Shown here: piece after piece, positions 51,480 to 64,000 of the stretch
Layout of the letters: each line of letters opens with the position of its first letter
Position numbering within the stretch: the stretch's first letter is position 1
NCBI GenBank assembly: GCA_025454475.1
Contig: JALOOJ010000014.1
Location: 179-64,178 of the forward strand
DNA: 64,000 nt
Direction of reading: 5' to 3'
From: Anaerolineae bacterium
Lineage (GTDB): Bacteria; Chloroflexota; Anaerolineae; B4-G1; SLSP01
The notes under the pieces: generated by a model
What the model was told of the DNA's origin: nothing
Seen by the model: only the letters and a program-made list of their open reading frames with translations
Database searches by the model: none
Translations under genes and position numbers: made by a program

Positions 51480-52691
51480 CTATGGCGTTTCGACTGGGAT
51501 GATGATCCCTTCCGAGACCCGTAACGTGGTCGTACGTTTCCGGAAGCTGTCCGGGAACAACTCGGCATCCGTCGTCGCCAGGATAGTTTGCTCGACATTA
51601 CCCAGCAGGTCCAGTAGGTAGTTGCGCCGAGCTCGATCGAGCTCAGCGAGGACCTCATCAAGGAGCAGGACCGGCGATTCCCCCGTGGTCTGCTCTAGCC
51701 AACGTAGTTCGGCCAGGTGCAGGGCCAGTACCGAGGTGCGCTGCTGACCACGCGAGCCAAAGGTCCCCATATCGCGTTCATTGGAGATGAAGCGCATCTC
51801 GTCGCGGTGGGGACCGACCAAGGTCATTCCCCTGTCGATTTCCTGGGCGCGTTTGCGCGCGAGCGCTTCGCGGTACGCGGTATAAAGCGCTTCCACATCC
51901 AGGGTTCGCTCCTCCGCATCCTCGGGTAGTAGCCCCATCTGATCGGCTGCAGGGGGCCGTACGGGGTCGAAGTTGGGCTCATATTGTAGCCTGAGCCAGG
52001 CTTGTCCACCGGTCAACTCCCGATGCAGTCGATCGATATGTATGGTGAGCTCGCGGATCACCTGCTGGCGATAGAGTGAGACCGTGACGCCGGTTCGGAC
52101 AATGCGCTCCTCCAGAGGAGCCAGCTGCATCGGATCTCCCCCATGCCGGCGCAGGTGCCGCAGCAGGGCATTCCGTCGCGAGACTGCGTGACGATAGGCA
52201 TCATAGACCTCGACATAGGTTGGATAGACCTGTGAGAGCAAGTTGTCGAGGTAGGCGCGTCGCCCCACCGGCGGGCCGTGGACGAGCGCAAGGTCCTCAG
52301 GCAAGAAGAGCACGACGTTGAGATGGCCGGCGAGGTTTGACCGCCGAATGGGTCGCTGGTCGATACGCACGCTCTTCTGCATGCGCTGGTGGCCATTGGA
52401 TAATGGCTTCCGCTCGATGGCGACCTCCAGCGTCTCCGTGCAATCGCGCCGCACGACCTCGGCCCTCACGTGTGAGAAGGGGAGACTGGCCTCCTCAGCG
52501 CCCCAATGGATGACTTGTTGGTCCACGCTGGTAAGGGGAGAGGCGCCGATGGCGAGAAACGCGATCGCCTCGAGCAAGCTGGTCTTTCCCTGCGCATTTG
52601 CTCCCAGGAGCAGAATGGGGCCAGCGGGCAGATCCAGCTCCAGGCGGTTGTACGTGCGGAATTGCCGCAGGCTAAGGCTTCGGATACGCAT
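51480..52691 (-). CDS. recF: DNA replication and repair protein RecF
   Basis: MRIRSLSLRQFRTY, Walker A GANAQGKTSLLEAI, signature and Walker B LLLDEVLAELD. Confidence 0.85.
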   Translation of the reverse strand: MRIRSLSLRQFRTYNRLELDLPAGPILLLGANAQGKTSLLEAIAFLAIGASPLTSVDQQVIHWGAEEASLPFSHVRAEVVRRDCTETLEVAIERKPLSNGHQRMQKSVRIDQRPIRRSNLAGHLNVVLFLPEDLALVHGPPVGRRAYLDNLLSQVYPTYVEVYDAYRHAVSRRNALLRHLRRHGGDPMQLAPLEERIVRTGVTVSLYRQQVIRELTIHIDRLHRELTGGQAWLRLQYEPNFDPVRPPAADQMGLLPEDAEERTLDVEALYTAYREALARKRAQEIDRGMTLVGPHRDEMRFISNERDMGTFGSRGQQRTSVLALHLAELRWLEQTTGESPVLLLDEVLAELDRARRNYLLDLLGNVEQTILATTDAELFPDSFRKRTTTLRVSEGIIIPVETP

Positions 52692-52825: not shown

Positions 52826-55399
52826 ATGCGACCAAAGCCGATTCGCACGTTTTCCATTGTCCCATCGTTGCCCGAGCCGTTGCTGCCACTCTGGCGCCTG
52901 GCCTACAATCTGCGCTGGGCTTGGAAGCACGATGCTATTGAGCTTTTTATCCGATTGGACAGTGAGTTATGGGAGCGGACGAACCACAATCCTGTTCGTA
53001 TGCTCGGGATGGTCAGCCAGGAGCGGTTGGAGAAGCTAGCTACCGACGTTGGGTTTCTGGCGCACCTCGAGCGGGCAACGGCGTACCTGGACGACTATAC
53101 GGGCCAGACGGAGTCTTCGTGGTACAGCCGGACGTATGGCAAGAAGGGCTCGGCGCCCATCGCCTATTTCTCGCTTGAGTTCGGACTGACTGAGTCGCTC
53201 ACTATTTTCGCCGGGGGCCTCGGCGTGCTTGCTGGCGACCACCTCAAGTCATCGAGTGACCTCAACGTTCCGCTGGTGGGGGTGGGCCTGCTGTATCAGC
53301 AGGGCTACTTCCAGCAGTATCTGAACCAGGCCGGATGGCAGCAGGAAGCCTATGAGGACAACCACTTCGACAATCTGCCCCTGACCCTTGAGCGGTTGCC
53401 CAACGGCGATCCTCTGACCGTGGACGTTCAGTTCCCTGGACACAAGGTGTTCGCCCAGGTATGGCGGGCCCAAGTTGGGCGCATCCCCCTCTACTTGCTG
53501 GATACCAACACGGCACTTAATAGCCGCCCGCAGGATCGTGACATTACCGATCAGCTCTATGGAGGGGACCAGGATCTGCGGATCAAGCAAGAGATCCTCC
53601 TGGGGATTGGCGGCTATCGGGCATTGCAGGCGCTGGGCCTGGCGCCGGTTGTCTATCATATGAACGAGGGGCACTCGGCTTTTCTGGCCCTGGAACACAT
53701 CCGAAGGCTAATGGTCGATCACAACCTCACTTTTGCCGCGGCACGCGAGGCAGCCTCGGCGAGTTGTGTGTTTACCACGCACACGCCGGTGCCAGCGGGT
53801 CACGATCGCTTCCCAGCCCCCCTGATGCAGCACTACTTCAACGATTATGCTACGCGTGAGTTGTCCTTGGGCTGGAATGACTTTATGGAACTGGGGCGCG
53901 AGAACCGTTTTGACGCCAATGAACCTTTCTGCATGACTGTTCTGGCTATCAAGTTGTCATCGTACACTAACGGCGTGAGCGCTCTCCACGGTGAGGTGTC
54001 GCAGGAGATGTGGCAGAATCTGTGGCCCGGGGTGCCACAGCAAGAGATCCCGATCTCGCATGTCACGAATGGGGTCCATATCCTCTCCTGGATCTCTCGA
54101 GATATGAAGGTGCTTTACGACCGCTATCTCGGCCCGCGGTGGCGTGAGGAGCCTGGTGATCGGGAGGTGTGGCGGCTGGCCAGGGATATCCCGGCCGATG
54201 AGCTATGGCGCACGCACGAGCGCCGCCGAGAGCTGCTCGTGGGCGTGACTCGGCAGCGCTTGCATCGACAGTTGGAGCAGCGCGGCGCACTGCCCAGCGA
54301 CATCCGTGCGGCTGACGAAGTCCTCGATCCAGAAGCCCTAACCATCGGGTTGGCGCGTCGTTTTGCGACGTACAAACGCGCCACACTGATCATGCGGGAC
54401 CCGGATCGCCTCGACCGCATCCTCAATGACCCCCAGCGTCCGGTTCAGATCATCTTCTCCGGAAAAGCACATCCCCGTGACGACCCCGGCAAGGCGATGA
54501 TTCAGCAGATCGTGGCCCTGAGCCGGGAGGATCGCTTCCGCAACCGTATCGTCTTTCTTGAGGACTATGACATGATCGTGGCCCGTTATCTGGTCCAGGG
54601 CTGCGACGTCTGGTTGAACACGCCCAGCCGACCAAGAGAGGCGAGTGGCACCAGTGGCATGAAGGCTGCCGCCAATGGCGTGCTGAATATCAGCACGCTG
54701 GATGGTTGGTGGGCTGAGGCCTACCGCCGTGAGGTGGGTTGGGCTATCGGCCGGGGTGAGACGTACAACGATGCCGAATACCAGGATCGCCTCGAGGCAG
54801 CGGCGCTCTATGATCTTCTGGAACGCGACGTCATCCCTATGTTCTACGACCACGAAGGGCGCGTCCCGCGCCGTTGGGCCGAGCAGATGAAGGCCAGTAT
54901 TGCGGACCTTTCCTACTTCTTTAACACCAACCGGATGGTGGCGGAGTACACGGATAGATTCTACGTCCCCTTGGCGGCGCGATATCGCAGCCTTGCCGAG
55001 GACGAGTTCGCGGGGGCAAAGGATCTTGCGGCCTGGCGTGAGAGGGTTCTACGCGACTGGTCGCAGATCCGCGTGAATTCGGTCAACGGCGATCTGCCGG
55101 TCCAGATCCATGTGGGGCGAACGTTTACAGCACACGCCGAAATCTACCTTGGTACCCTGCAGCCAGAGGACGTATGCGTCGAGCTCTATATCGGATTGGT
55201 CAATCCAAGTGGCGAACTGGTTCGGGGACGCCCGGTCACGATGCAGGTCAGTGAGAAACTCGACGGGCAGCGGTATCTCTATGCGGCGGACGCTGAGTGC
55301 GCGATGAGCGGCCTGCACGGGTATACGGTGCGGGTCTTGCCCTATCACGAGGACCTGGTGACCCTATTCCAGCCCGGGATGATACGTTGGGCCGGCTAA
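52826..55399 (+). CDS. glgP: alpha-glucan phosphorylase, second paralog (GlgP-like with ~150-aa C-terminal extension)
   Basis: Same motif set as 3388-5562 (WKHDAIELF...NPV, GGLGVLAGDH, EGHSAF, TTHTPVPAGHD, GKAHPRDDPGK, ASGTSGMKAAANG). Start at Met 52826 preceded by AGGAGG. Confidence 0.85.
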   Translation: MRPKPIRTFSIVPSLPEPLLPLWRLAYNLRWAWKHDAIELFIRLDSELWERTNHNPVRMLGMVSQERLEKLATDVGFLAHLERATAYLDDYTGQTESSWYSRTYGKKGSAPIAYFSLEFGLTESLTIFAGGLGVLAGDHLKSSSDLNVPLVGVGLLYQQGYFQQYLNQAGWQQEAYEDNHFDNLPLTLERLPNGDPLTVDVQFPGHKVFAQVWRAQVGRIPLYLLDTNTALNSRPQDRDITDQLYGGDQDLRIKQEILLGIGGYRALQALGLAPVVYHMNEGHSAFLALEHIRRLMVDHNLTFAAAREAASASCVFTTHTPVPAGHDRFPAPLMQHYFNDYATRELSLGWNDFMELGRENRFDANEPFCMTVLAIKLSSYTNGVSALHGEVSQEMWQNLWPGVPQQEIPISHVTNGVHILSWISRDMKVLYDRYLGPRWREEPGDREVWRLARDIPADELWRTHERRRELLVGVTRQRLHRQLEQRGALPSDIRAADEVLDPEALTIGLARRFATYKRATLIMRDPDRLDRILNDPQRPVQIIFSGKAHPRDDPGKAMIQQIVALSREDRFRNRIVFLEDYDMIVARYLVQGCDVWLNTPSRPREASGTSGMKAAANGVLNISTLDGWWAEAYRREVGWAIGRGETYNDAEYQDRLEAAALYDLLERDVIPMFYDHEGRVPRRWAEQMKASIADLSYFFNTNRMVAEYTDRFYVPLAARYRSLAEDEFAGAKDLAAWRERVLRDWSQIRVNSVNGDLPVQIHVGRTFTAHAEIYLGTLQPEDVCVELYIGLVNPSGELVRGRPVTMQVSEKLDGQRYLYAADAECAMSGLHGYTVRVLPYHEDLVTLFQPGMIRWAG

Positions 55400-56281
55400 G
55401 CTGACCTCAAGAACGCGATCCCTCCCCTCCAGATCCTGATGTATCTGGAGGTGGGTGGCTTGATGCCCACGTCGTGTGAATATTCGCTGAGCCAGCTCCA
55501 TCACGGCGCTGGCTTGCTGCTCACCAATCTCCGTTAACAGACATCCCCCGGGCGCCAGTCGCGTTGCCGCTTGTCGCAACAGCCGCTCAATGGCATCTAG
55601 TCCCTCCGGCCCAGAGATCAGAGCCGCACGAGGCTCATGCCGGACCGAGCACGGAAGGTCCTGCCATTCTGCCTCGGCGATGTAGGGCGGATTGCTGACA
55701 ATCAAGTCCACGGGCGCGGCGAACGGTGTCAGCAGATCGGTCTGTACCCACGCCAGGCGCTCCGCCACGCTGTTGCGCTGCGCGTTCGCTCGGGCCACTG
55801 CCAGTGCTGCAGCCGAGATGTCCGCGGCCCAAATACGCGACGAAGGCACTGCCGCCGCTAGTGCCACCGCGATACACCCGGACCCAGTGCCAACGTCGAC
55901 CACGCGCTGCGCGCGCTGTACCCCGGAGTGGTGCCATGCTGAGAGCCGGGGCAGTGCCAGCTCCACCAGCAGCTCCGTTTCGGGACGTGGGATCAGAACC
56001 GCCGGCGTAACACCGAACTCCAGCCCGAAGAACTCGACGAATCCCAGGATGTACGGTAACGGGACGCCGGTAGCTCGGCGTTGCACTGCATCCGTGAAGC
56101 GATCGACTTGGGCTGGTGCGAGCGGCCATTCGGGGTGAGCCAGAACTGCGGTCCGCTCAAGGTGCAGTATCCAGGCAAGCAGGCGCTCTGCCTCATTGTG
56201 AGGACGATCGGTTGTTCGCTGAAGTTGGACGACTGCCCACTGCAGCGCCTCGCGAATTGCGAGCAGGCTTGGCGATGTCAC
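55364..56281 (-). CDS. prmC: release factor glutamine N5-methyltransferase PrmC (HemK)
   Basis: VDVGTGSGCIAVALA SAM motif, NPPY catalytic motif (IVSNPPYI). Start placed at GTG 56281 downstream of the upstream gene's stop; the longer ORF is excluded. Confidence 0.7.
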   Translation of the reverse strand: MTSPSLLAIREALQWAVVQLQRTTDRPHNEAERLLAWILHLERTAVLAHPEWPLAPAQVDRFTDAVQRRATGVPLPYILGFVEFFGLEFGVTPAVLIPRPETELLVELALPRLSAWHHSGVQRAQRVVDVGTGSGCIAVALAAAVPSSRIWAADISAAALAVARANAQRNSVAERLAWVQTDLLTPFAAPVDLIVSNPPYIAEAEWQDLPCSVRHEPRAALISGPEGLDAIERLLRQAATRLAPGGCLLTEIGEQQASAVMELAQRIFTRRGHQATHLQIHQDLEGRDRVLEVSLAGPTYHPGLE

Positions 56282-56310
56282 GGCCGGCGCGGTGTTCCCT
56301 AAGCCGAGGT

Positions 56311-56994
56311 CTACTCGTTGCGGAAGCGGGCCTCGAGTTTCTCCAGCAGTTCTGCGGCTTCGACCAGCTTGTCGAGCGGGTTCTGCTTGCCCGTGAAATA
56401 GCGGTAATCGCAAGGCATAATATCCAGCTTTGTTACCAGCGTCTCGTGGTGTTTTCTGATGGTTTCTGCTGAGCTCTCGTAGGTATTGACGAGCTCTTCC
56501 AGCGAAACGTCGTGTAGGTTCACCTTGCGTACGGTGTAGTCCAATGCGGCGGCCCAAGCTTCGGGCTTGGGGATGGCGAGCGGTTCTTCGCCCAGGCTTA
56601 TACGGAACTCCACCCACATCTGGATCGCCGCACCCGTTAGGTCGATGGGTAGATGCGAGGCAGTCATCTTCTCGGTGAGCTGGTTCTCAACTGGGTCCAT
56701 CCCACTGGCAAAGAGCTGCTCGATGCGACTGGCTACCTTCGACTCGGGCTCGAGTCTGAGGTAGTTGGCCAGTGCTCTCAGAGCCCGGTCGAAGTCTCCC
56801 GAGCGCGACAGCACCTGCGCCAGGCGCATCTGGTAGGCCGCGTTGTCCGGATGCAACGCTACGACTGCTTCCAGTCCCCGCACTGCATCCTCAACATCCC
56901 AGCGCTCGTATGCCGCAAGTGCCTTGTCGTAAAGTGTCTGGGCTTTGCGCCGTTTGACCGCTGCTGACTGATCTGGACTCATCGCGACCTCCAT
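56311..56994 (-). CDS. TPR-repeat protein
   Basis: Helical TPR-like repeats (AAYERWDVEDAVRGLEAVVALHPDNAAYQMRLAQVLSRSGDFDRALRALANYLRLEP). Confidence 0.6.
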   Translation of the reverse strand: MEVAMSPDQSAAVKRRKAQTLYDKALAAYERWDVEDAVRGLEAVVALHPDNAAYQMRLAQVLSRSGDFDRALRALANYLRLEPESKVASRIEQLFASGMDPVENQLTEKMTASHLPIDLTGAAIQMWVEFRISLGEEPLAIPKPEAWAAALDYTVRKVNLHDVSLEELVNTYESSAETIRKHHETLVTKLDIMPCDYRYFTGKQNPLDKLVEAAELLEKLEARFRNE

Positions 56995-57109: not shown

Positions 57110-59326
57110 TCACCACCAATGCTCGGACGCTACTTCGACACCCCAGGAGTCCAGCAACGCCATAACCTCACTCCAGTGTGCTTCGTTGACGATCGCCAGG
57201 CTTTCCAGACCGGGCAGAGGGCGCAGCCAGCGATGCAGGGCTGGGTCCGCAGCGCGCAGTTCGGCCAACGCCTCGTTGCGTTTGAGGTGGAGCAAGCGTA
57301 CCTGGGAAGTCTGGCCGTCGCCAAAGTGCTTGCCCCACGCTTTGACAAGTTTTTCCAAGCCGTCTGGGGGAGGCGCACCGGTTAGCATCTTCAGGCGGGC
57401 AATCACCTCAAGCGGGGGAGTGCCCAACGCTGCTGCCGCCTGAATAGACTGTGGGGTGAGGCGCCAACGGTTTCCGTGCGGTTCAGCGAACCGGGCCAAG
57501 GCGGCGCTTACATAGAGGCTGGGCAGTGCGGTGCGCGACTCCAGCTCACCATCACGCCACCGCATACTGTTTGGGAGGTCGGCTTGAGCTCCATGCGATA
57601 CTGCTGGGAGTAGTTCGTGTGCCTGGAGGCGCTGTCGGACCAGATCGGTGTCCTCCGGTACGAACCATGCGGAACGATCGTCAATGCGATGAAGATGCTG
57701 GCCAAGTTGAGGATCATCCAACAGCGCGGTCAGGCGTTCCCCACTATCGACTTGCAGGATCCTTGCGCTGCGCCGGACAGTGATCCGCTCATACTGCCGA
57801 TACCACTCCTCAAGCGAGCGGTGGATGTTTTGGGGGATCGGCTGGCCTGTGGTTTCTTCCAGGTATGCCAGTATGGTCGGCACTGTCTCGCCCGCTCGCA
57901 GCGCGCGGTAGATCGATTCGCGGTTGAGCCGGTACGTGACGACGCTCTCATCGATCTTCTCGCGGTGCGCGACTTGCTCGATACCGGCCAGAACACGCAA
58001 CGGGATGGGGCCTAATGCCAGAACTTGGAAATCGGGTTGCAGGATCACTTGCCAGGGCTGGTCCTGATGGCTTGGTACGGTCTGTCCAAGGGTCTGATCC
58101 GTGCGTAGCGCCACCAGATCCTTCGAGTCGGCCTCGCTGTACCCTAGCTCGACCAGTCCCATGGCACACAACTCCTCCAGTGCGCGCTGGACCCATGCTC
58201 GCTCTATCCCCTTCAGATTGGCCTCCACCTCGCGTTGATAGGCGCTGCCATACCAGCGATATTGGTCATAAACAACGGCCAGGATGTTGTCATCGAGGAC
58301 AAGGCCGCCCGCTTGGTCGCCTGTCAGCAGGCTCAGGAGGGTGGAGAAGGACCACCAGCCGGGAGCGGAGGCCTGTACAAGCGTAGCCAGGATCTGACTG
58401 CGCACGTCGCTGGGTGCGCGTAGGTCAAATCCCTGGAGATGCCCGGTCAGGCGAGAGGTCGCGCGATCGCTAGAAAGCGGCGATGACATGCGGGCATACG
58501 CTTGGCGCAGATCGCGTTGATATTGGGAGGTCTTCGCTCCCCAGAACAACGTGACAGCTTGGCCCTCAACCGCCGTGACCTCAGTGGGGGATTCGGTAAC
58601 CAGATTCAGCGCGGCGAGCACGTGGCAGAGCCACGCGACCTTCTCCAGCCCATCGGGTTCTTCGAGCGCCAGCGCCGCGCACAGTCGGCGTCTATCGCGT
58701 TTCCCGATGTCTCCTGTCTTGAGGCGCTGGGCGGGCTGATCTCGGAGGTGAGCCCACACGAAGAGGAGCTCGCGCAGGAATGCCTGCAGATCGCGTGACA
58801 CGACGTGATGCGGTGTCACGCTGCGTGCCAAGACCTGGCCCAGATCCGGCTGCGGTTCAGACAGCAGAGCGGTTGGAAGTAGACTGCGGACTTCTTCCGG
58901 GATGCCAAAGCGGCTCATCAGCGACAACGTCCGGCCGTCAGAGCTGCTGATTGGTGGGGTCACGTTCACGATCAGGCCCTTGCGCAACAGGTCGGACAAG
59001 ATGTCTCGGGTCCGCGGCCGGCGAGAAGCCTCGGGTTGGCCCTCGATATGCACCAGCCCGGCTAGCATCAGGGGGCGGGCCACGGTGGCAAGTGTGGTAG
59101 GTTCCGCGCAGTTGATCAAGATTGCCAACGCCGCCCGCTCGGTGTCGCTCAGCGCCTGGATGAATGCTTCCGAACGTGCCATCTTGGGGATGAGTCTGCC
59201 AAGCTCGGTGACTAGCCATCCCTTTCGCGGAGGAAAACGATCTGACTTGAGCGCGAGCTGATCGGCGATTTCCTGCAGTGCATTGATGTGGTAAGACTGC
59301 AGCGTGGCTTCCAGTTGTGGGACCAC
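57110..59326 (-). CDS. large uncharacterised XPB-operon protein B (738 aa), paralogous to the 639-aa neighbour
   Basis: Shares N-terminal (..L..L..LGL....R..LV..L...DP....E..V..LSEEE-like) and C-terminal (LKxxWxxxxG...VRLLHLKRNEALAELRA) modules with the ORF at 59328-61247. 1-2 nt spacing between operon genes. Confidence 0.55.
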   Translation of the reverse strand: MVPQLEATLQSYHINALQEIADQLALKSDRFPPRKGWLVTELGRLIPKMARSEAFIQALSDTERAALAILINCAEPTTLATVARPLMLAGLVHIEGQPEASRRPRTRDILSDLLRKGLIVNVTPPISSSDGRTLSLMSRFGIPEEVRSLLPTALLSEPQPDLGQVLARSVTPHHVVSRDLQAFLRELLFVWAHLRDQPAQRLKTGDIGKRDRRRLCAALALEEPDGLEKVAWLCHVLAALNLVTESPTEVTAVEGQAVTLFWGAKTSQYQRDLRQAYARMSSPLSSDRATSRLTGHLQGFDLRAPSDVRSQILATLVQASAPGWWSFSTLLSLLTGDQAGGLVLDDNILAVVYDQYRWYGSAYQREVEANLKGIERAWVQRALEELCAMGLVELGYSEADSKDLVALRTDQTLGQTVPSHQDQPWQVILQPDFQVLALGPIPLRVLAGIEQVAHREKIDESVVTYRLNRESIYRALRAGETVPTILAYLEETTGQPIPQNIHRSLEEWYRQYERITVRRSARILQVDSGERLTALLDDPQLGQHLHRIDDRSAWFVPEDTDLVRQRLQAHELLPAVSHGAQADLPNSMRWRDGELESRTALPSLYVSAALARFAEPHGNRWRLTPQSIQAAAALGTPPLEVIARLKMLTGAPPPDGLEKLVKAWGKHFGDGQTSQVRLLHLKRNEALAELRAADPALHRWLRPLPGLESLAIVNEAHWSEVMALLDSWGVEVASEHWW

Positions 59327-59327
59327 G

Positions 59328-61247
59328 TTAGGCTTCCTTAGGCATATAGCCCTGCCGGGTTAGGTTGCTGAGAAGTGGGTCAACACTCTCTTCGTCAAGC
59401 AGTACCGTTTCAGGGGTCAGACTACCCAGAATTGACGACTGCAGACTGGGGAGGGCCACCTGCAGTTCATGCATGGTGACCGCATCGCGTGTCTGGAGCA
59501 GGGCTTGTGTCGGGTAGATGCGCACGTGTCCGTAGCGGAGCCACCAGGCATCCCACCACTGCGCAATCTCGGGAAGCGGCTCGAAACCTGTGGCGGCCCT
59601 CCATGCAGCCTTGAGTGCGTCGGGATGCATGCCGTGCTCAAAGGCTCTGTGAAGCCGCTGAACGTCCAGTCGATAGCGCACCAATGTGCGTGAGAAACCC
59701 GCCGGCACCGCCCATTGGAGCACAAACGTCACGAGATCCGGTGGAAGGGGGGCCTCGATCTCCAGGATGGACTCCGCCATAACGAACCGCAGGGTCTCTT
59801 GTCGCAGTTCACCAACGGCGTCCAACATGACCTCCATGCTTCGCCTCCAGTGGAGGTCCTGGAATCGCTGGAGGCGTATACTCTTGACGGTGTTCAGAGA
59901 CGGCCCTACATCCGCAAGGCCGAAAGCATGCAGTGGGCCAGTGACCATACGCAGGAGGGCCGTCTCCAGAAAGTCCGTCCAGCCTCCCTTGGGGCCCTTG
60001 GGTATGACTCCTATCAGATACTGATGGGTGTCCGGCGTTGGGAAGAGCGCGGTGAGCCACTCCATCAGATCGCTGACAGCAAGCCAGGTGCCGTGTGGGA
60101 GGCAGGCGAGCAACTCAAGTAAGACTCCCCGCAGATCGACGACGCTGCTTCTGATGGCGTCGTCGATAGAATTGAGCCCCCAATACCCGTGGTAGAGTTG
60201 GGTGATGGTAATCTGCTGCTCACGCCATAGAGGCCACCACTCCGACCACGTTGTGATGCTGCACCAGAGGTGATAGAGCGCACCCAGTTGGTTCCCCGGA
60301 GTCAAGGCTAACCACTGCTGCGCTAAGGCGCTGTCGATCGTGATCGGGCTGCCGCTCAGAATGATGCCGCTGTATAGGAGTAACGCGTAAATAAGCTCCG
60401 CCCGCTCCGGCGTGCAACCCAGTACGTGGGTCCACTCATTGAGCGTTTCGGCATCGAGGTCTGGGTCTGGTGGCAGTAACTCTATTCTGCCCTCCAAGGC
60501 GGGCCTGGCAATGATCTTCTGGGCATCGGCTGGGACCGGGGGCCAACAGATGATGGGCTGCGCAAACGGATAGGGTGGCGCTTTCCACCTGAGTCGAGCC
60601 CTGAGCTTCGCAGGTTCGGACTGCAGGACGCTGATCAGCTGCTGGACCTGTGTGAGGATTTCCCGCGGGTTGGACGGCACAACCTTACGCGGCGCCGAAC
60701 TGGCACGGAAGGGTATCTGCAGCTGTGGGAGTCTCCGGCGCAGTGCCGCTGGCAGATACAGCTGCCCGTCTTCGGTCACTAGCGCTAGCCCGGCTTTGCG
60801 GATGCGTTGCGCGAGTCTGGGCCACGGCGTCGTGAAGTCATACCACAACGCTCTTCCCTGGGGTACCGTGTGATAGGCTTGGATGAAGCTCTGCACGACC
60901 AGGGTGCCGTAATATCTGAGCTCTTCTTCAGAGAGATCGTCCACGCACTGCTCTAGGCGTTGGGGATCGAGGAAGCACTCGGCTAACTGCTGCGCCACCA
61001 GTTGCCGCGTTCCCCCTTCGGGCGGAAGCCCAAGGGCGGTGAGAAGGTCACGAAGTTGGGACAGCCGCCAGCCGGATTCCAGCAGCTCCTGCACCATATG
61101 GGTGACGGGGTCGACGAGTCCCGCCGACCAAGCGGGAGGGGCCGACAATGGGGTTGGCGACGTTGGGAACTCCCACAGATAGCCCAATTCCGAGCTCGGC
61201 GTCGCGTCCTCTCTGCTAGATTTCGCGCTCGAGGGCTTCTTGCTCAT
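59328..61247 (-). CDS. large uncharacterised XPB-operon protein A (639 aa), paralogous to the 738-aa neighbour
   Basis: Overlaps the XPB stop by 4 nt. Trp/Leu-rich helical protein with no recognisable catalytic motif. Confidence 0.55.
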   Translation of the reverse strand: MSKKPSSAKSSREDATPSSELGYLWEFPTSPTPLSAPPAWSAGLVDPVTHMVQELLESGWRLSQLRDLLTALGLPPEGGTRQLVAQQLAECFLDPQRLEQCVDDLSEEELRYYGTLVVQSFIQAYHTVPQGRALWYDFTTPWPRLAQRIRKAGLALVTEDGQLYLPAALRRRLPQLQIPFRASSAPRKVVPSNPREILTQVQQLISVLQSEPAKLRARLRWKAPPYPFAQPIICWPPVPADAQKIIARPALEGRIELLPPDPDLDAETLNEWTHVLGCTPERAELIYALLLYSGIILSGSPITIDSALAQQWLALTPGNQLGALYHLWCSITTWSEWWPLWREQQITITQLYHGYWGLNSIDDAIRSSVVDLRGVLLELLACLPHGTWLAVSDLMEWLTALFPTPDTHQYLIGVIPKGPKGGWTDFLETALLRMVTGPLHAFGLADVGPSLNTVKSIRLQRFQDLHWRRSMEVMLDAVGELRQETLRFVMAESILEIEAPLPPDLVTFVLQWAVPAGFSRTLVRYRLDVQRLHRAFEHGMHPDALKAAWRAATGFEPLPEIAQWWDAWWLRYGHVRIYPTQALLQTRDAVTMHELQVALPSLQSSILGSLTPETVLLDEESVDPLLSNLTRQGYMPKEA

Positions 61248-63019
61248 CTGCTGTCGATTCGTGGAACGCCGGGAATGGCTCGCTGCTGCGTGTGAGGCAG
61301 AGCCCCGGGGATCTCCTCCCCATAGAGGATCAGATACCGATAGCCTTGCTCGGTGAGGAAGCGTTGACGGTTGGCGCTGAAGTCCTGATCCACGGTCTCT
61401 TTGGTGACGATGGAGTAGAAGTAGGCCTGACCACCGTCAGGCTTGGGGCGCAGAATGCGACCGAGGCGCTGGGCTTCCTCCTGGCGCGAGCCGAAGGTTC
61501 CCGAGATCTGGATCGCAACATTGGCGTCCGGCAGGTCGATGGAGAAGTTGGCGACCTTGGAGACCACGAGTGTGGTGATCTCACCGTTGCGGAACTTCTC
61601 GTAGAGCTCCTCACGTTCGGACACCTTGGTCTTGCCGGTGATGATAGGATAGCCATAGTGCGAGGAGATCTGTTCTAGCTGTTCCAGGTACATCCCAATG
61701 ATGAGGACCCGATCGCCTTTATGATACGTGAGCAGCCGGTCGAGGATGTCGAGCTTGACCGTGGCATCGGCTGCTACACGGTACCTAAGTCGTTGCTCCG
61801 CCATAATGTAGCCTATGCGCTCCGCCTCCGACATCGTCACGCGGATTTCATAGCAGATGGCAGGTGCGATCCATCCTTGTCGTTCCAGATCGTGCCACGG
61901 CACATCGTACTTCTTGGGACCGATTAGCGAGAAGACGTCCTCTTCCCGCTGATCCTCTCGAACCAAGGTCGCCGTCAACCCAAGGCGGCGGCGCGCCTGA
62001 AGCTCGGCGGTGATGCGGAAGACGGGCGCGGGCAGAAGGTGCACCTCGTCGTAAATAATGAGCCCCCAGTCGCCCTCGTTGAAGAGCGCGAAGTGCGGGT
62101 ACTGTTCGGACAGCGGAAGGTGGTCGCCGGCCTTGGTGCCCCGCTTGCGATGCGTGAGGATCTGGTACGTGGTCACCGTGACCGGGCGGATCTCCTTGCG
62201 CTCCCCGGTGTATTCGCCGATCGAGTCCTCGGTAAGCGAGGTCTTGCTGAGCAGTTCCTCGCGCCATTGGCGGGCCGCGACGGTGCTGGGCGTGAGGATC
62301 AGTGTGTTCATTTGAATCTGCGCCATCGCTACCATGCCTACGATCGTCTTCCCGGCGCCGCAGGGAAGGACGATAACTCCTGCCCCACCGGCATCCGAGC
62401 CATGGGCCCAGAAGATGCCTGCAGCATCGCGTTGATACTCGCGGACGACAAACGGGCCGTCGTTCAGCGATAGGGCGCGAAGCTGGAGTGCCAATGGTTT
62501 GCCTGCGAGATAGCCGACCAGATCCTCGGCGGGATAGCCGGCCTTGAGCAGGGCCTGCTTCACATGGCCGCGTCGCGAGGCGGGTACCTGGAATGTGTGG
62601 GGCCCAAGGCGGTCCAGCACGTAGGGTTTGAGGTGGCGGTTATTCTCTAACTCGATGAGCAGTAGCGGCTCGTCTGATGTGAGTCGCAGTCGCTCCGGGT
62701 CATAGGGGTCGCGCGTGAGCCGCACCCTACCGTACCTGCCTATCGCGTCACGTATTTCGAAGACAACGTTTTCAGGCAGGGGATACTTGGCGAAGTTCTG
62801 CAGCCCGGCGATGATCTCCTCGGCGTCGAGGCCAGCGGCTGCGGCGTTCCACAGCGAGAGCGATGAGATGCGATACGTGTGGATGTACTCCGGGCTCTTC
62901 TCCAGCTCGGCGAACCTCGCCAGATGGTCTCGCGCGGCTTCGTAGTCAGAGCTGTTCACCTCCAGGAGGACTGTGCGGTCACCCTGGACGATAAGTGGCG
63001 CGTCGATTCGAAAATCCAT
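61244..63019 (-). CDS. xpb: XPB/ERCC3/Ssl2-type SF2 DNA helicase (bacterial XPB)
   Basis: N-terminal damage-recognition-like domain, motif I VLPCGAGKT, motif II IYDEVHLL, XPB-specific RED motif in LTATLVREDQRE, motif V/VI (SKVANFSIDLPDANVAIQ, QEEAQRLGRILR). Confidence 0.85.
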   Translation of the reverse strand: MDFRIDAPLIVQGDRTVLLEVNSSDYEAARDHLARFAELEKSPEYIHTYRISSLSLWNAAAAGLDAEEIIAGLQNFAKYPLPENVVFEIRDAIGRYGRVRLTRDPYDPERLRLTSDEPLLLIELENNRHLKPYVLDRLGPHTFQVPASRRGHVKQALLKAGYPAEDLVGYLAGKPLALQLRALSLNDGPFVVREYQRDAAGIFWAHGSDAGGAGVIVLPCGAGKTIVGMVAMAQIQMNTLILTPSTVAARQWREELLSKTSLTEDSIGEYTGERKEIRPVTVTTYQILTHRKRGTKAGDHLPLSEQYPHFALFNEGDWGLIIYDEVHLLPAPVFRITAELQARRRLGLTATLVREDQREEDVFSLIGPKKYDVPWHDLERQGWIAPAICYEIRVTMSEAERIGYIMAEQRLRYRVAADATVKLDILDRLLTYHKGDRVLIIGMYLEQLEQISSHYGYPIITGKTKVSEREELYEKFRNGEITTLVVSKVANFSIDLPDANVAIQISGTFGSRQEEAQRLGRILRPKPDGGQAYFYSIVTKETVDQDFSANRQRFLTEQGYRYLILYGEEIPGALPHTQQRAIPGVPRIDSR

Positions 63020-63028
63020 AACCTAGCC

Positions 63029-63056
63029 ATTCTACCCGACCAGGATGCTTAGTCAA
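63029..63056 (-). promoter_or_regulatory. promoter of the XPB operon on the minus strand (-35 TTGACT = + coords 63051-63056, 16-nt spacer, -10 TAGAAT = 63029-63034); start codon 63017-63019 lies 9 nt after the -10, so near-leaderless
   Basis: Consensus hexamers read on the reverse complement. Confidence 0.55.
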
Positions 63057-63139: not shown

Positions 63140-64000
63140 ATGCACCATGTCATGGTGACGGGGGGAGCGGGTTTCATCGGGTCGAACTTCGTCCGGTATT
63201 TCTTACAGGCGCACCCGGACTACGACGTCGTCGTCTATGACAAACTCACGTACGCCGGGCGGCTGGAAAATCTGCAGGACGTTTCTGAGGCCTTTGCGGG
63301 CCGCTATGCCTTCGTGCGGGGTGACATCTGCGACATTCCCCTGGTGGAGCGGACGATATCGCAGCACGGTGTTGACACGATCGTGAACTTCGCCGCGGAA
63401 ACCCACGTCGACCGCTCGCTAATGACGCCGGGGTCGTTTATCCAGACGGACGTGTATGGCACTTTTGTGCTGCTCGAAGTGGCCCGCAAGCACGGGCTGG
63501 AGCGCTATCATCAGATCAGCACCGATGAGGTCTACGGTCAGGTGCTCGACGGGCGCTCGGTGGAGACAGACCAGCTAGAGCCGCGCAGCCCCTATGCCGC
63601 CAGCAAGGCCGCCGGCGACTTGATGGCATTGGCATACGTCGAGTCCTGGGGGTTGCCCGTTACGATCACCCGAGGTTCCAACAATATCGGCCCTTTCCAG
63701 TATCCTGAGAAGGTGGTGCCGCTCTTTGCGACCAACGCCATTGATGATCAGCCTTTGCCCGTGTATGGCGATGGTCGCCAGATGCGTGACTATCAGCATG
63801 TGCTTGACCACTGCACGGGCATTGACACGGTTCTGCACAAGGGCGAGTTGGGTCAGATCTACAACGTCGGCACAGGGTCGGAGCTGACCAATATCGAGAT
63901 GACGCGGATCGTGCTCGACACGCTGGGCAAGCCCGATAGTCTCATCAAGCACGTCGAGGATCGGCCTGGGCACGATCGGCGCTATGCCCTCGATGTTAGC
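63140..64000 (+). CDS. rfbB: dTDP-glucose 4,6-dehydratase, 5' part (runs off window end)
   Basis: MHHVMVTGGAGFIGSNF, YDKLTYAG, catalytic YAASKAA, preceded by AGGAGG RBS at 63126-63131. No stop before 64000. Confidence 0.85.
   Translation, partial: MHHVMVTGGAGFIGSNFVRYFLQAHPDYDVVVYDKLTYAGRLENLQDVSEAFAGRYAFVRGDICDIPLVERTISQHGVDTIVNFAAETHVDRSLMTPGSFIQTDVYGTFVLLEVARKHGLERYHQISTDEVYGQVLDGRSVETDQLEPRSPYAASKAAGDLMALAYVESWGLPVTITRGSNNIGPFQYPEKVVPLFATNAIDDQPLPVYGDGRQMRDYQHVLDHCTGIDTVLHKGELGQIYNVGTGSELTNIEMTRIVLDTLGKPDSLIKHVEDRPGHDRRYALDVS

Follow-up and report, generated by a model that had tools for sequence, protein, structure and literature searches.

In eukaryotic TFIIH, p52 pairs with the N-terminal domain (NTD) of XPB, holding the motor and activating it (Greber et al. 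2019, PMC6422496); the mechanism of this pair is also treated in PMC3353954, citing Coin 2007. Archaeal XPB is encoded beside, and works with, a dedicated partner, the nuclease Bax1 (PMC7672443). Bacterial XPBs, for example ercc3/Rv0861c of Mycobacterium tuberculosis, are accompanied by one 'helicase-associated domain-containing protein' (in this species, putatively Rv0862c), and biochemistry on the bacterial system was done on the helicase only (PMC3353954). Here, we analyse a locus in which xpb is followed by two such partner genes, A and B, within a window of 64,000 nucleotides from an Anaerolineae bacterium. We consider it somewhat better than an even bet that this chromosomal, vertically inherited operon corresponds in bacteria to the XPB-p52 module of TFIIH.

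The three open reading frames, all on the minus strand, have exactly the coordinates given in the original prediction (Table 1), and the 4-nt and 1-nt junctions, from which tight coupling of xpb to two large partner genes had been proposed, were both read in the sequence. The gap between A and B has a median of 1 nt across 64 orthologous loci, and a Shine-Dalgarno-like run, AAGGAAG, lies just upstream of the GTG of B. A promoter-like site that matches the consensus at 10 of 12 positions lies within the 121-nt gap common to xpb and a divergent epimerase/dehydratase gene; upstream of the orthologues, the −10-like 7-mers GTAGAAT and GTAAAAT occur in 17 and 14 of 55 regions, respectively.

Table 1. 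Coordinates of genes, junctions and predicted domains of the xpb locus (positions in the window).
Feature	Position	Strand	Details
xpb	61244-63019	minus	591 aa, ATG start; NCBI MCU0519678.1, deposited as 'DEAD/DEAH box helicase'
Partner A	59328-61247	minus	639 aa, ATG start; MCU0519677.1, 'hypothetical protein'
Partner B	57110-59326	minus	738 aa, GTG start; MCU0519676.1, 'helicase-associated domain-containing protein'
ATGA overlap of XPB stop and A start	61244-61247	minus	translational coupling; direct sequence reading
A stop TAA, 1 base (C), B start GTG	59324-59330	minus	direct sequence reading
Promoter-like site TTGACT-16-TAGAAT	63029-63056	minus	consensus match alone; ~10 nt upstream of XPB start codon
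XPB N-terminal domain, aa 9-138, Pfam Helicase_C_3	62606-62995	minus	PF13625, 116 bits
XPB helicase core, two RecA-like domains with RED motif, aa 191-565	61325-62449	minus	Pfam and alignments
A: single XPB-NTD-like (Helicase_C_3, 'clutch'-like) module, aa 484-620	59388-59798	minus	hhalign
B: winged helix and first half of module 1, aa 379-497	57836-58192	minus	stretch aligning by sequence with Tfb2/p52
B: XPB-NTD-like module 1, aa 427-558	57653-58048	minus	Helicase_C_3 and hhalign
B: XPB-NTD-like module 2, aa 607-711, absent from A	57194-57508	minus	hhalign

The assignment of the first gene as a true XPB orthologue, originally made from its SF2 motifs and RED motif, is borne out by profile searches: the protein scores 842 bits against the NCBIfam equivalog model NF045503 'DNA repair helicase XPB' (cutoff 610) and 337 bits against TIGR00603 rad25 (cutoff 328.7), has Pfam matches to ERCC3_RAD25_C, ResIII, Helicase_C and, at the N-terminus, Helicase_C_3, and contains all of the motifs (GAGKT at aa 221, DEVH at 324, TATL at 349, RED at 354-356, and QRLGR at 517). 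The helicase core, with ResIII at 191-353 and ERCC3_RAD25_C at 378-565, aligns to Ssl2 362-736 and to human XPB 315-690. Among solved structures, yeast Ssl2/Rad25 is nearest (E = 9e-82, vs. E = 7e-43 for archaeal XPB), and human XPB aligns in a single stretch over residues 5-565, whereas the archaeal XPBs in the PDB, which are without an NTD, align in the core only. The N-terminal domain had been described as 'DRD-like'; it is present, but is more than that, with residues 11-103 aligning to the p52-binding domain of Ssl2 (135-227, E = 5.5e-10). Gene 1 encodes an XPB orthologue, a translocase/helicase in which the eukaryote-type NTD is retained, a homologue of the domain that pairs with the p52 'clutch' in eukaryotes.

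The original description of the partners as lacking recognisable catalytic motifs stands as regards catalytic domains, but it missed that both are p52/Tfb2-like: genes 2 and 3 encode paralogous scaffolds made up of a SAP-like motif, winged helices and copies of the XPB NTD, of which A has one and B has two. In B, the SAP-like motif is N-terminal and helical and is accompanied by several winged helices, and the closest solved relatives by fold and sequence profile are p52/Tfb2. When the confident B model (pLDDT 84) was searched with Foldseek, the 21 best PDB matches were all TFIIH p52/Tfb2 chains (E down to 2.9e-9), with alignments of 550-594 columns; XPB chains trailed them by some 5 orders of magnitude, and matches were limited to p52, the XPB NTD and winged-helix proteins. 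TM-scores were low (0.2-0.3) because multi-domain chains superpose poorly, and the co-linearity of B with p52 therefore rests on the 3Di alignment statistics. The sequence similarity of B to Tfb2 is marginal (E of 0.002-0.03). Chaetomium Tfb2 was the top PDB match of the B family profile (6trs_A, E = 0.0022, residues 191-327), in an alignment that takes in the winged helix and then the clutch, the order that Tfb2 also has; single-sequence searches reached yeast Tfb2 at E = 0.014-0.03, with 'ITRESIRRALTNGITADQIIAYLE' aligned against 'LNRESIYRALRAGETVPTILAYLE'; and 8 of 17 B family members matched Pfam Tfb2 (best E = 3.2e-4), all under the gathering score (13.7 bits for the window B vs. 34.5). 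Pfam places two Helicase_C_3 stretches in B. Module 1 scores 99.8 bits (aa 427-544), matches the XPB NTD in hhalign (97.9%, E = 6e-13) and contains the strongest invariant motifs of the family (LQPDFQ.LA and PQN..RSL.EW), and module 2 matches the XPB NTD at 94.5% probability (E = 8.2e-8).

That the two partners are paralogous, as first proposed, holds at the profile level: hhalign comparison of family alignments of 71 and 75 sequences places A 51-637 onto B 4-575 (probability 99.9%, E = 1.2e-35, 515 columns, 15% identity). BLASTP does not carry the claim as far, with only 24% identity across 89 aa (E = 2e-4), and we take A and B to be true but distant paralogues. The XPB NTD profile matches that of A (probability 97%, E = 1.2e-10), and Helicase_C_3 is sub-threshold in the window A (22.6 bits vs. 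34.2) and above threshold in orthologues (39-43 bits). The A2 profile search retrieved 640 cluster representatives at E<=1e-3, and Pfam SWIM and Rho_N/SAP matches are present in A orthologues. CxCx(n)CxH near residue 66 was found in 62 of 76 long A homologues and in 0 of 40 short ones. In the long-form orthologues, the SWIM finger stands at the start of the protein and the gene directly follows that of an SF2 helicase. Bacterial SWIM zinc-finger proteins are reportedly encoded beside SF2/SNF2 helicases, as Makarova, Aravind and Koonin are said to have described in 2002, an arrangement that these orthologues resemble and from which the window differs in that A is SWIM-less, the helicase is XPB rather than SNF2, and the remainder of A is p52/B-like. 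A is a SWIM-less member of a SWIM zinc-finger/SAP-like/winged-helix/XPB-NTD-like family, and its ancestors carried the finger that the window protein has lost. The structure model of A was poor (pLDDT 55), and its best PDB matches, Tfb2 and p52, were not significant with this model (E ~0.23-0.25).

Compared with eukaryotic XPB-p52(-p8) (Ssl2-Tfb2-Tfb5 in yeast), the window combines an orthologous helicase, including its p52-binding domain, with a non-catalytic scaffold in which winged helices are followed by an XPB-NTD-like clutch and which has p52/Tfb2 as best structural and profile matches. It differs in that the cluster is without genes for XPD, p62, p44, p34 and p8, that there are two paralogous partners instead of one, that B is longer (~740 aa vs. 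~460-510 aa for p52/Tfb2), with a SAP-like N-terminus and a pair of NTD-like modules, and that the genes form a translationally coupled bacterial operon, for which a link to RNA polymerase is putative.

The possibility that the association of xpb with two partners is a chance juxtaposition, which the original prediction had tied to a lack of conservation in relatives, does not hold. Among 80 related loci from Anaerolineae, Thermoflexia, Ardenticatenaceae and Caldilineaceae, 64 have XPB, A and B in this order on one strand; in the remaining 16, a contig end truncates the locus or, in L004, which has XPB upstream, an assembly gap interrupts it, and the order is kept in 65 of 65 informative loci. 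In Ktedonobacteria-like genomes, the A-B pair lies away from XPB, and in three such lineages, with differing upstream genes, it is followed by RecO, a hint of repair.

We weighed three other readings of the locus. A and B might share with p52 only Helicase_C_3 and generic winged helices, through convergence or likeness in one domain, and act in a non-p52 mode as DNA-binding regulators or adaptors, for example transcription factors that control or recruit XPB. We judge this rather unlikely: likeness in a single domain would not give the lead of p52/Tfb2 over XPB, or the alignment length, seen in Foldseek, the profile match covers the winged helix before the clutch as well, and strict co-linearity and coupling with xpb fit an obligate subunit better than a regulator. 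Helicases are also components of defence systems, such as Pbe, the Dnd/Ssp restriction modules and DISARM, and WYL domains are common in defence regulators. A module for defence against phages or plasmids, or for restriction, with the XPB-like helicase as motor and A and B as sensor or effector subunits, would be in line with the partial match of the XPB core to PbeA in PADLOC (E = 5.8e-26), the NCBIfam match of XPB to a Dnd restriction enzyme (63 bits vs. a cutoff of 600), the location of some XPBs of other phyla on megaplasmids, with toxin-antitoxin genes or an HNH gene nearby, and the C-terminal WYL domain of some actinobacterial partners. The PbeA and Dnd matches, however, are confined to generic SF2 regions and lie far under the family cutoffs; PADLOC gave no match for A or B, searches for domains and folds turned up no nuclease or other effector, no relatives of the B family were found in 2.9 million viral contigs, the G+C content of the locus does not deviate, and synteny of the neighbouring genes for TPR, PrmC, glycogen phosphorylase, RecF, RpoD and FtsY extends across many Chloroflexota, a conserved housekeeping setting rather than a variable island. 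This setting, which the original prediction missed, speaks for housekeeping and not for defence, and we consider phage defence unlikely and the module as a whole improbable as a defence system.

We give even less credence to a helicase-nuclease repair machine resembling archaeal XPB-Bax1, with A or B as a cryptic nuclease that cuts DNA opened by XPB. The layout is analogous, XPB being co-transcribed with its partner in archaea (PMC7672443), and part of A is poorly modelled, such that a divergent active site might lie there. Bax1, however, is unrelated to A or B, Pfam and NCBIfam searches found no nuclease family in either protein, Foldseek found no nuclease fold among the matches of the confident B model, A is homologous to B over nearly its full length, and the window XPB is nearer to eukaryotic XPBs than to the Bax1-associated archaeal ones, which lack its NTD.

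On our best reading, the locus encodes an XPB-p52 translocase module like that of TFIIH, which would serve in the repair of chromosomal DNA or in transcription-linked work. XPB, A and B would assemble into one complex, in which the winged-helix and SAP-like parts of the partners, together with the SWIM finger in ancestral A, may position the motor on DNA; the partners, expected to hold and activate the motor as in TFIIH (PMC6422496), would switch on ATP-driven double-strand translocation and DNA opening by XPB. Its most likely job would be to open or remodel chromosomal DNA where there are lesions, stalled RNA polymerase or recombination intermediates. Bacteria seem to possess a motor module like that of TFIIH, with partners that resemble the XPB-holding, XPB-activating p52.

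The duplicated partner, flagged as unusual in the original prediction, is so in a wider comparison: eight XPB loci from four other phyla (Actinomycetota, with five genera, Cyanobacteriota, Bacillota and Deinococcota) each have one B-type Helicase_C_3 partner, adjacent or within ~5 kb (8/8), and the second partner A is therefore a Chloroflexota addition. These XPBs belong to the same helicase family (50-55% identity to the window XPB), but in the window a SWIM-lineage paralogue is fixed between xpb and B, and the second NTD-like module of B stands where WYL sits in some single-partner systems. The order and spacing of xpb and partner vary in the other phyla, a small 115-aa ORF lies between them in Deinococcus, and the partners had no Tfb2 match at E<0.1. 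No Helicase_C_3 neighbour was found for the haloarchaeal plasmid XPB-like genes examined.

In M. tuberculosis, as stated in the original prediction, XPB lies beside one large protein: Rv0862c (960342-962612, minus) is directly upstream of ercc3/Rv0861c, on the same strand (958523-960151, minus; PMC8151990, supplement 6), and would belong to the B family. In the Tn-seq data of the PMC10534295 supplements, both genes were rifampicin-hypersusceptible (LFC −1.45, adjusted p = 1e-9 for ercc3, and LFC −1.68, adjusted p = 1e-11 for rv0862c) and neither was isoniazid-sensitive; since rv0862c is upstream, its phenotype could reflect polarity on ercc3. No SOS-type box was found upstream of xpb, except at 1 of 55 loci, and an M. 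tuberculosis mitomycin table, with column labels undecoded, gave no obvious induction; a damage-response role is therefore unsupported by regulation. The proteome samples in which Rv0861c is detected largely coincide with those for Rv0862c, and both proteins have comparably low intensities (PMC8151990, supplement 5).

Three minus-strand genes, xpb and those of the two large proteins that we call A and B, follow one another in that order (table). As read from the sequence, xpb and A share an ATGA overlap, and A is separated from B by a one-base spacer, with an AAGGAAG run preceding the GTG of B; the tight operon described in the original prediction is thus borne out. The 121 nt located 5' of xpb are common to this gene and to a divergent NAD-dependent epimerase/dehydratase gene on the plus strand, with its start near 63141. 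They hold a promoter-like element of which the -10-like part lies so close to the xpb start codon that the mRNA is suggested to be leaderless or to have only a very short leader. Among 55 regions upstream of xpb orthologues, the 7-mer GTAGAAT was found in 17 and GTAAAAT in 14. The unit consists of the three genes xpb-A-B because the 115-nt gap that separates it from the downstream TPR gene contains a TG-TATAAT promoter-like element of its own; for these reasons, the TPR gene was rejected as an operon member, even though 27 related loci have a TPR orthologue at the corresponding position. The contig belongs to a deposited Anaerolineae MAG, and the G+C content is uniform over the window.

Genes and sites of the xpb-A-B region, in coordinates of the window
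Feature	Position	Strand	Product	Public name	Remarks
recF	51480-52691	minus			TIGR00611, 286 bits (cutoff 172); 4.4 kb 3' of the operon
PrmC ORF	55364-56617	minus	417 aa as called		overlaps the TPR gene by ~300 nt
TPR protein gene	56311-56994	minus	227 aa		3' of the operon after the 115-nt gap
B	57110-59326	minus	738 aa	helicase-associated domain-containing protein	GTG start
A	59328-61247	minus	639 aa	hypothetical protein	
xpb	61244-63019	minus	591 aa	DEAD/DEAH box helicase	
Promoter-like TTGACT-16-TAGAAT	63029-63056	minus			~10 nt before the XPB ATG, inside the 121-nt gap

By the strictest sequence test available, the first gene encodes an XPB orthologue: the protein scores 842.1 bits against the NCBIfam equivalog NF045503 (cutoff 610), with residues 8-564 of 591 covered, and 337.3 bits against TIGR00603 rad25 (cutoff 328.7). 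Pfam identifies ERCC3_RAD25_C, ResIII and Helicase_C domains, and the SF2 motif set with the RED motif, from which the gene had first been recognised as a true XPB, is in place (GAGKT at 221, DEVH at 324, TATL at 349, RED at 354-356 and QRLGR at 517). Among relatives of solved structure, yeast Ssl2 ranks first (E = 9e-82), followed by human XPB (~1e-74), and archaeal XPBs (7e-43 or weaker) align with the protein in the core only. Its N-terminal domain (NTD; Pfam Helicase_C_3, residues 9-138) aligns with Ssl2 135-227 (E = 5.5e-10) and the protein scores 116.1 bits against PF13625 (Helicase_C_3; gathering threshold 34.2). DNA-dependent ATPase and 3'-5' helicase/translocase activity has been shown only for the XPB of M. 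tuberculosis (PMC3353954), and a 2026 review still describes the function of bacterial XPB as 'elusive' (PMC13024598).

In a single-sequence BLASTP comparison, A and B share only 24% identity over 89 residues. Comparison of their profiles with hhalign (built on 71 sequences for A and 75 for B, collected as ORFs at 80 related loci), however, aligns A 51-637 with B 4-575 over 515 columns at 15% identity (probability 99.9%, E = 1.2e-35), which, at the profile level, identifies the two proteins as real but ancient paralogues, as had been proposed. Residues 51-92 of A align with the N-terminus of B, the region of a SAP-like motif, and B is longer than A by ~160 C-terminal residues. The XPB NTD profile matches A once (residues 484-620, probability 97%, E = 1e-10) and B twice (module 1, residues 447-558, 97.9%, E = 6e-13; module 2, residues 607-711, 94.5%, E = 8e-8), so that A contains one NTD-like module, and B two. 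Against PF13625, B scores 99.8 bits in two stretches, the window's A 22.6 bits, below the 34.2 threshold, and A orthologues 39-43 bits, above it; within the window, modules of this type are confined to XPB, A and B. No catalytic family was detected in either partner with Pfam, NCBIfam or PADLOC, in agreement with the claim that they lack recognisable catalytic motifs.

The nearest known relative of B is p52 of TFIIH (Tfb2 in yeast). The AlphaFold2 model of B (pLDDT 84.3, pTM 0.64) consists of an N-terminal helical motif, several winged-helix-type helix-strand units and two tandem alpha/beta modules. In a Foldseek comparison of this model to the PDB, the top 21 matches were all TFIIH p52/Tfb2 chains (7o4i_2, E = 2.9e-9; 8ebs_D, 3.9e-9; 6nmi_D, 1.4e-7; 6trs_B, 3.8e-7; up to 594 columns), XPB chains ranked next (~1e-4, 200-290 columns), and unrelated proteins did not appear before E = 0.02. 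The architecture of B is that of p52, a winged-helix array followed by an XPB-NTD-fold 'clutch', in co-linear order. The best match of the B-family profile in the PDB was Chaetomium Tfb2 (E = 0.0022), in an alignment spanning winged helix and clutch, and single-sequence searches with B reached yeast Tfb2 (E = 0.014-0.03), the two having a motif recognisably in common. Against Pfam Tfb2 (PF03849; gathering threshold 34.5), B scores 13.7 bits (E = 0.03), below the threshold, as do all of the matches (E < 0.1) in 8 of 17 diverse B-family members, the best at 3.2e-4; a faint Tfb2 match to B-like proteins is also present in the precomputed annotations of the sequence collection. These sequence signals are in weak agreement with the structural result and, because the scores stay sub-threshold, we call B 'p52-like', short of membership in Pfam Tfb2. 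According to an explicit statement in a 2012 study, no p52 homologues had been found in bacteria (PMC3353954).

A putative kinship of A to p52 is drawn from its homology to B, because the model of A is poor (pLDDT 55, built on a 7-sequence alignment) and its top two Foldseek matches, Tfb2 and p52, are not significant; the A profile has no match in the PDB, and A none to PF03849. An exhaustive A-profile search of 1.84 billion cluster representatives yielded 640 relatives, 91 of them at E <= 1e-30, which split into two size classes, a long form of ~750-790 aa and a short one of ~640 aa, to which the window's A belongs. Most of the long forms (62 of 76) have a SWIM-type CxCx(n)CxH motif near residue 66, which all 40 short forms lack; Pfam confirms SWIM in some of the long forms, with detections in L064, L072 and P0038, and finds helix-extended-helix motifs of the Rho_N/SAP-like type in further, distantly related A-like proteins. 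Given this distribution of the motif (PF04434), which is absent from the window's A, the latter is a SWIM-less derivative. A further protein search with a diversified alignment added little, because the selection of candidates by shared words had become saturated with close relatives.

A scan with the B profile, at one genome per species, identified 170 relatives, and the best 80 loci were all from Chloroflexota. In 64 of these 80 loci, the order is xpb, A, B, with all three on one strand; the remaining 16 are truncated at a contig end, except for L004, which an assembly gap interrupts and which keeps XPB upstream, so that the arrangement is not a chance juxtaposition. The median gap between A and B across the Chloroflexota loci is 1 nt. 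The sample from other phyla comprised eight XPB loci from a plasmid collection, several of them really on megaplasmids or chromosome-sized replicons (Tsukamurella, Nocardia, Actinomyces, Arthrobacter, Nonomuraea, Gloeocapsopsis, Paenibacillus and Deinococcus). In all eight, a single Helicase_C_3 protein adjoins xpb or lies within ~5 kb, and in each this partner scores higher against the B profile than against the A profile. In M. tuberculosis, ercc3 (Rv0861c) and rv0862c are adjacent on one strand (coordinates in PMC8151990 supplement 6), which matches the original prediction, by which actinobacterial XPB lies beside one large protein; from its gene position, Rv0862c is a putative B-type partner. 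Because all eight loci have one B-type partner and the M. tuberculosis pair is adjacent, the general bacterial state is XPB with one B-type partner, and the window represents a Chloroflexota variant with a fixed second paralogue; duplication of the partner is, as anticipated, unusual. Ktedonobacteria-like genomes keep an overlapping A-B pair that is not adjacent to xpb, and in three such lineages (Tengunoibacter and two metagenomic ones; L081:13250-14059, L092:12335-13150 and L095:11884-12942) recO follows the pair within ~1 kb, after a small ORF, with different upstream genes. This neighbourhood may reflect a functional link to RecFOR-type repair.

The genes flanking the operon in the window encode the TPR protein, PrmC, a glycogen-phosphorylase-like protein, RecF, ribosomal protein S1 and enoyl-ACP reductase. 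Among the flanks in relatives are RpoD, FtsY and MoxR, and several flanking genes keep their synteny from locus to locus; the context is core genome, not a defence island. We treat recF as context and not as part of the operon, given that the plus-strand glycogen-phosphorylase-like gene intervenes and that its synteny extends to 6 close relatives only. In the called PrmC ORF, similarity to the family starts no earlier than residue 121-142, so the true start codon probably lies well inside it. A LexA box of the form GAAC-N4-GTTC was found upstream of xpb in 1 of 55 loci, which is weak negative evidence on SOS regulation of xpb, as this is the Gram-positive-type box and the true Chloroflexota motif may differ; SOS regulation was set aside on this count.

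Taken together, these observations make it moderately probable that the xpb-A-B operon as a whole is a counterpart of the XPB-p52 part of TFIIH. The main rival, that the partners have just a domain in common with p52 and act in another way, appears rather unlikely: p52 stands five orders of magnitude ahead of XPB in the Foldseek comparison, which indicates more than a shared NTD fold and is not a ranking that domain-only sharing would produce. That the operon is a defence module is improbable. XPB itself has only partial matches in PADLOC-DB v2 (PbeA, generic helicase regions), A and B have none, no B-family relatives were found in viral contigs, and the housekeeping flanks are syntenic, on which grounds defence was rejected as the main reading. 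A Bax1-like or other nuclease partner, for which the original prediction had looked to the archaeal pairing, was likewise rejected, and a cryptic nuclease is the least credible of the alternatives, with very little probability: the partner in archaeal XPB-Bax1 has a nuclease domain, whereas A and B contain no nuclease or Bax1 family in Pfam or NCBIfam, and no nuclease fold is among the structural matches of B. Two haloarchaeal megaplasmid XPB-like genes (L090:4713-6560 and L091:4431-6218) have no Helicase_C_3 partner beside them, and no gene there obviously encodes a nuclease; the two helicases, annotated merely as DEAD/DEAH box helicases, are 31-40% identical to the window's XPB.

In TFIIH, the XPB NTD is bound by p52, which also stimulates the ATPase of XPB; the C-terminal domain of p52 pairs with p8/Tfb5, and its N-terminus binds p34. 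The XPB NTD and the homologous p52 clutch domain form a pseudo-symmetric dimer (Greber et al. 2019, PMC6422496). By analogy, A and B would bind XPB by pairing of NTD-like modules, of which four are encoded across XPB, A and B, so that two pseudo-symmetric pairs could form; the winged-helix and SAP-like parts of the partners would position the motor on DNA, and the partners would stimulate its ATP-driven translocation and DNA opening. The operon contains no p8-, p34-, p44- or p62-like gene. In M. tuberculosis, transposon mutants of ercc3 and rv0862c are hypersusceptible to rifampicin by Tn-seq (LFC -1.45, adjusted p = 1e-9, and LFC -1.68, 1e-11, respectively; PMC10534295 supplement files 3-6), and isoniazid had no effect on either (PMC10534295 supplements). 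The Tn-seq paper discusses only ercc3 (PMC10534295), and since rv0862c lies upstream of ercc3, its phenotype may be a polar effect. In proteome data, the two proteins occur in largely overlapping sets of samples, with similarly low levels in each case (PMC8151990 supplement 5). The evidence is compatible with chromosomal repair or recombination, in view of the neighbouring recO and recF genes, as well as with a role linked to transcription, in view of the rifampicin phenotype and the TFIIH analogy.

Databases already contain XPB and the 'helicase-associated domain' label. Within the literature searched, the coverage of which is incomplete, no paper describing a relationship of bacterial XPB neighbours to p52 was found, and three points appear to be undescribed: the p52-likeness of these neighbours along most of their length, the generality of XPB-partner pairing across several bacterial phyla, and the Chloroflexota three-gene operon with its fixed, duplicated, SWIM-derived second partner. 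If the neighbours are p52-like, biochemistry on XPB alone probably concerned an incomplete enzyme, and bacteria would offer a two- or three-protein model of how p52 couples to and activates XPB, a step that XP/TTD mutations affect in humans. Whether the XPB-p52 of the TFIIH core came from bacteria or archaea would also become open to a phylogenetic test. We consider it possible, if doubtful, that Terrabacteria have a genuine homologue of the XPB-p52 clutch, with the p52-like subunit duplicated to a hetero-pair in Chloroflexota, that the partnership is pre-eukaryotic and perhaps passed from bacteria to eukaryotes, and that its bacterial role is transcription-linked. Bacterial entry into the eukaryotic lineage is raised because the window's XPB with its NTD is far closer to Ssl2 and human XPB than to solved archaeal XPBs, and the shared rifampicin hypersusceptibility hints at the transcription-linked role.

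Further variants of the partners were observed. One Anaerolineae and one Caldilineaceae MAG (L079:4158-5987 and L080:2483-4318) have a third Helicase_C_3 paralogue of ~610 aa, the gene of which either separates xpb from A or immediately precedes xpb, and the protein search returned similar proteins of 546-642 aa (P0041-P0046). B-type partners of Nocardia (L086:13303-15600, E = 2e-5) and Nonomuraea (L089:221-3220, 4e-8) have a C-terminal WYL domain (Pfam), the nucleotide/ssDNA-sensing module of PafBC-type damage regulators, where the Chloroflexota B instead has its second XPB-NTD-like module. On Deinococcus aquaticus pDATS01, a 115-aa 'hypothetical protein' (L082:7550-7897), with no PDB or Pfam match, is encoded in the interval that separates xpb from its single B-type partner. 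Residues 46-114 of this protein correspond to positions 517-584 of the B profile (E = 3e-10), where a small alpha/beta sub-domain follows module 1, and we speculate that it might be a p8/Tfb5-like mini-subunit.
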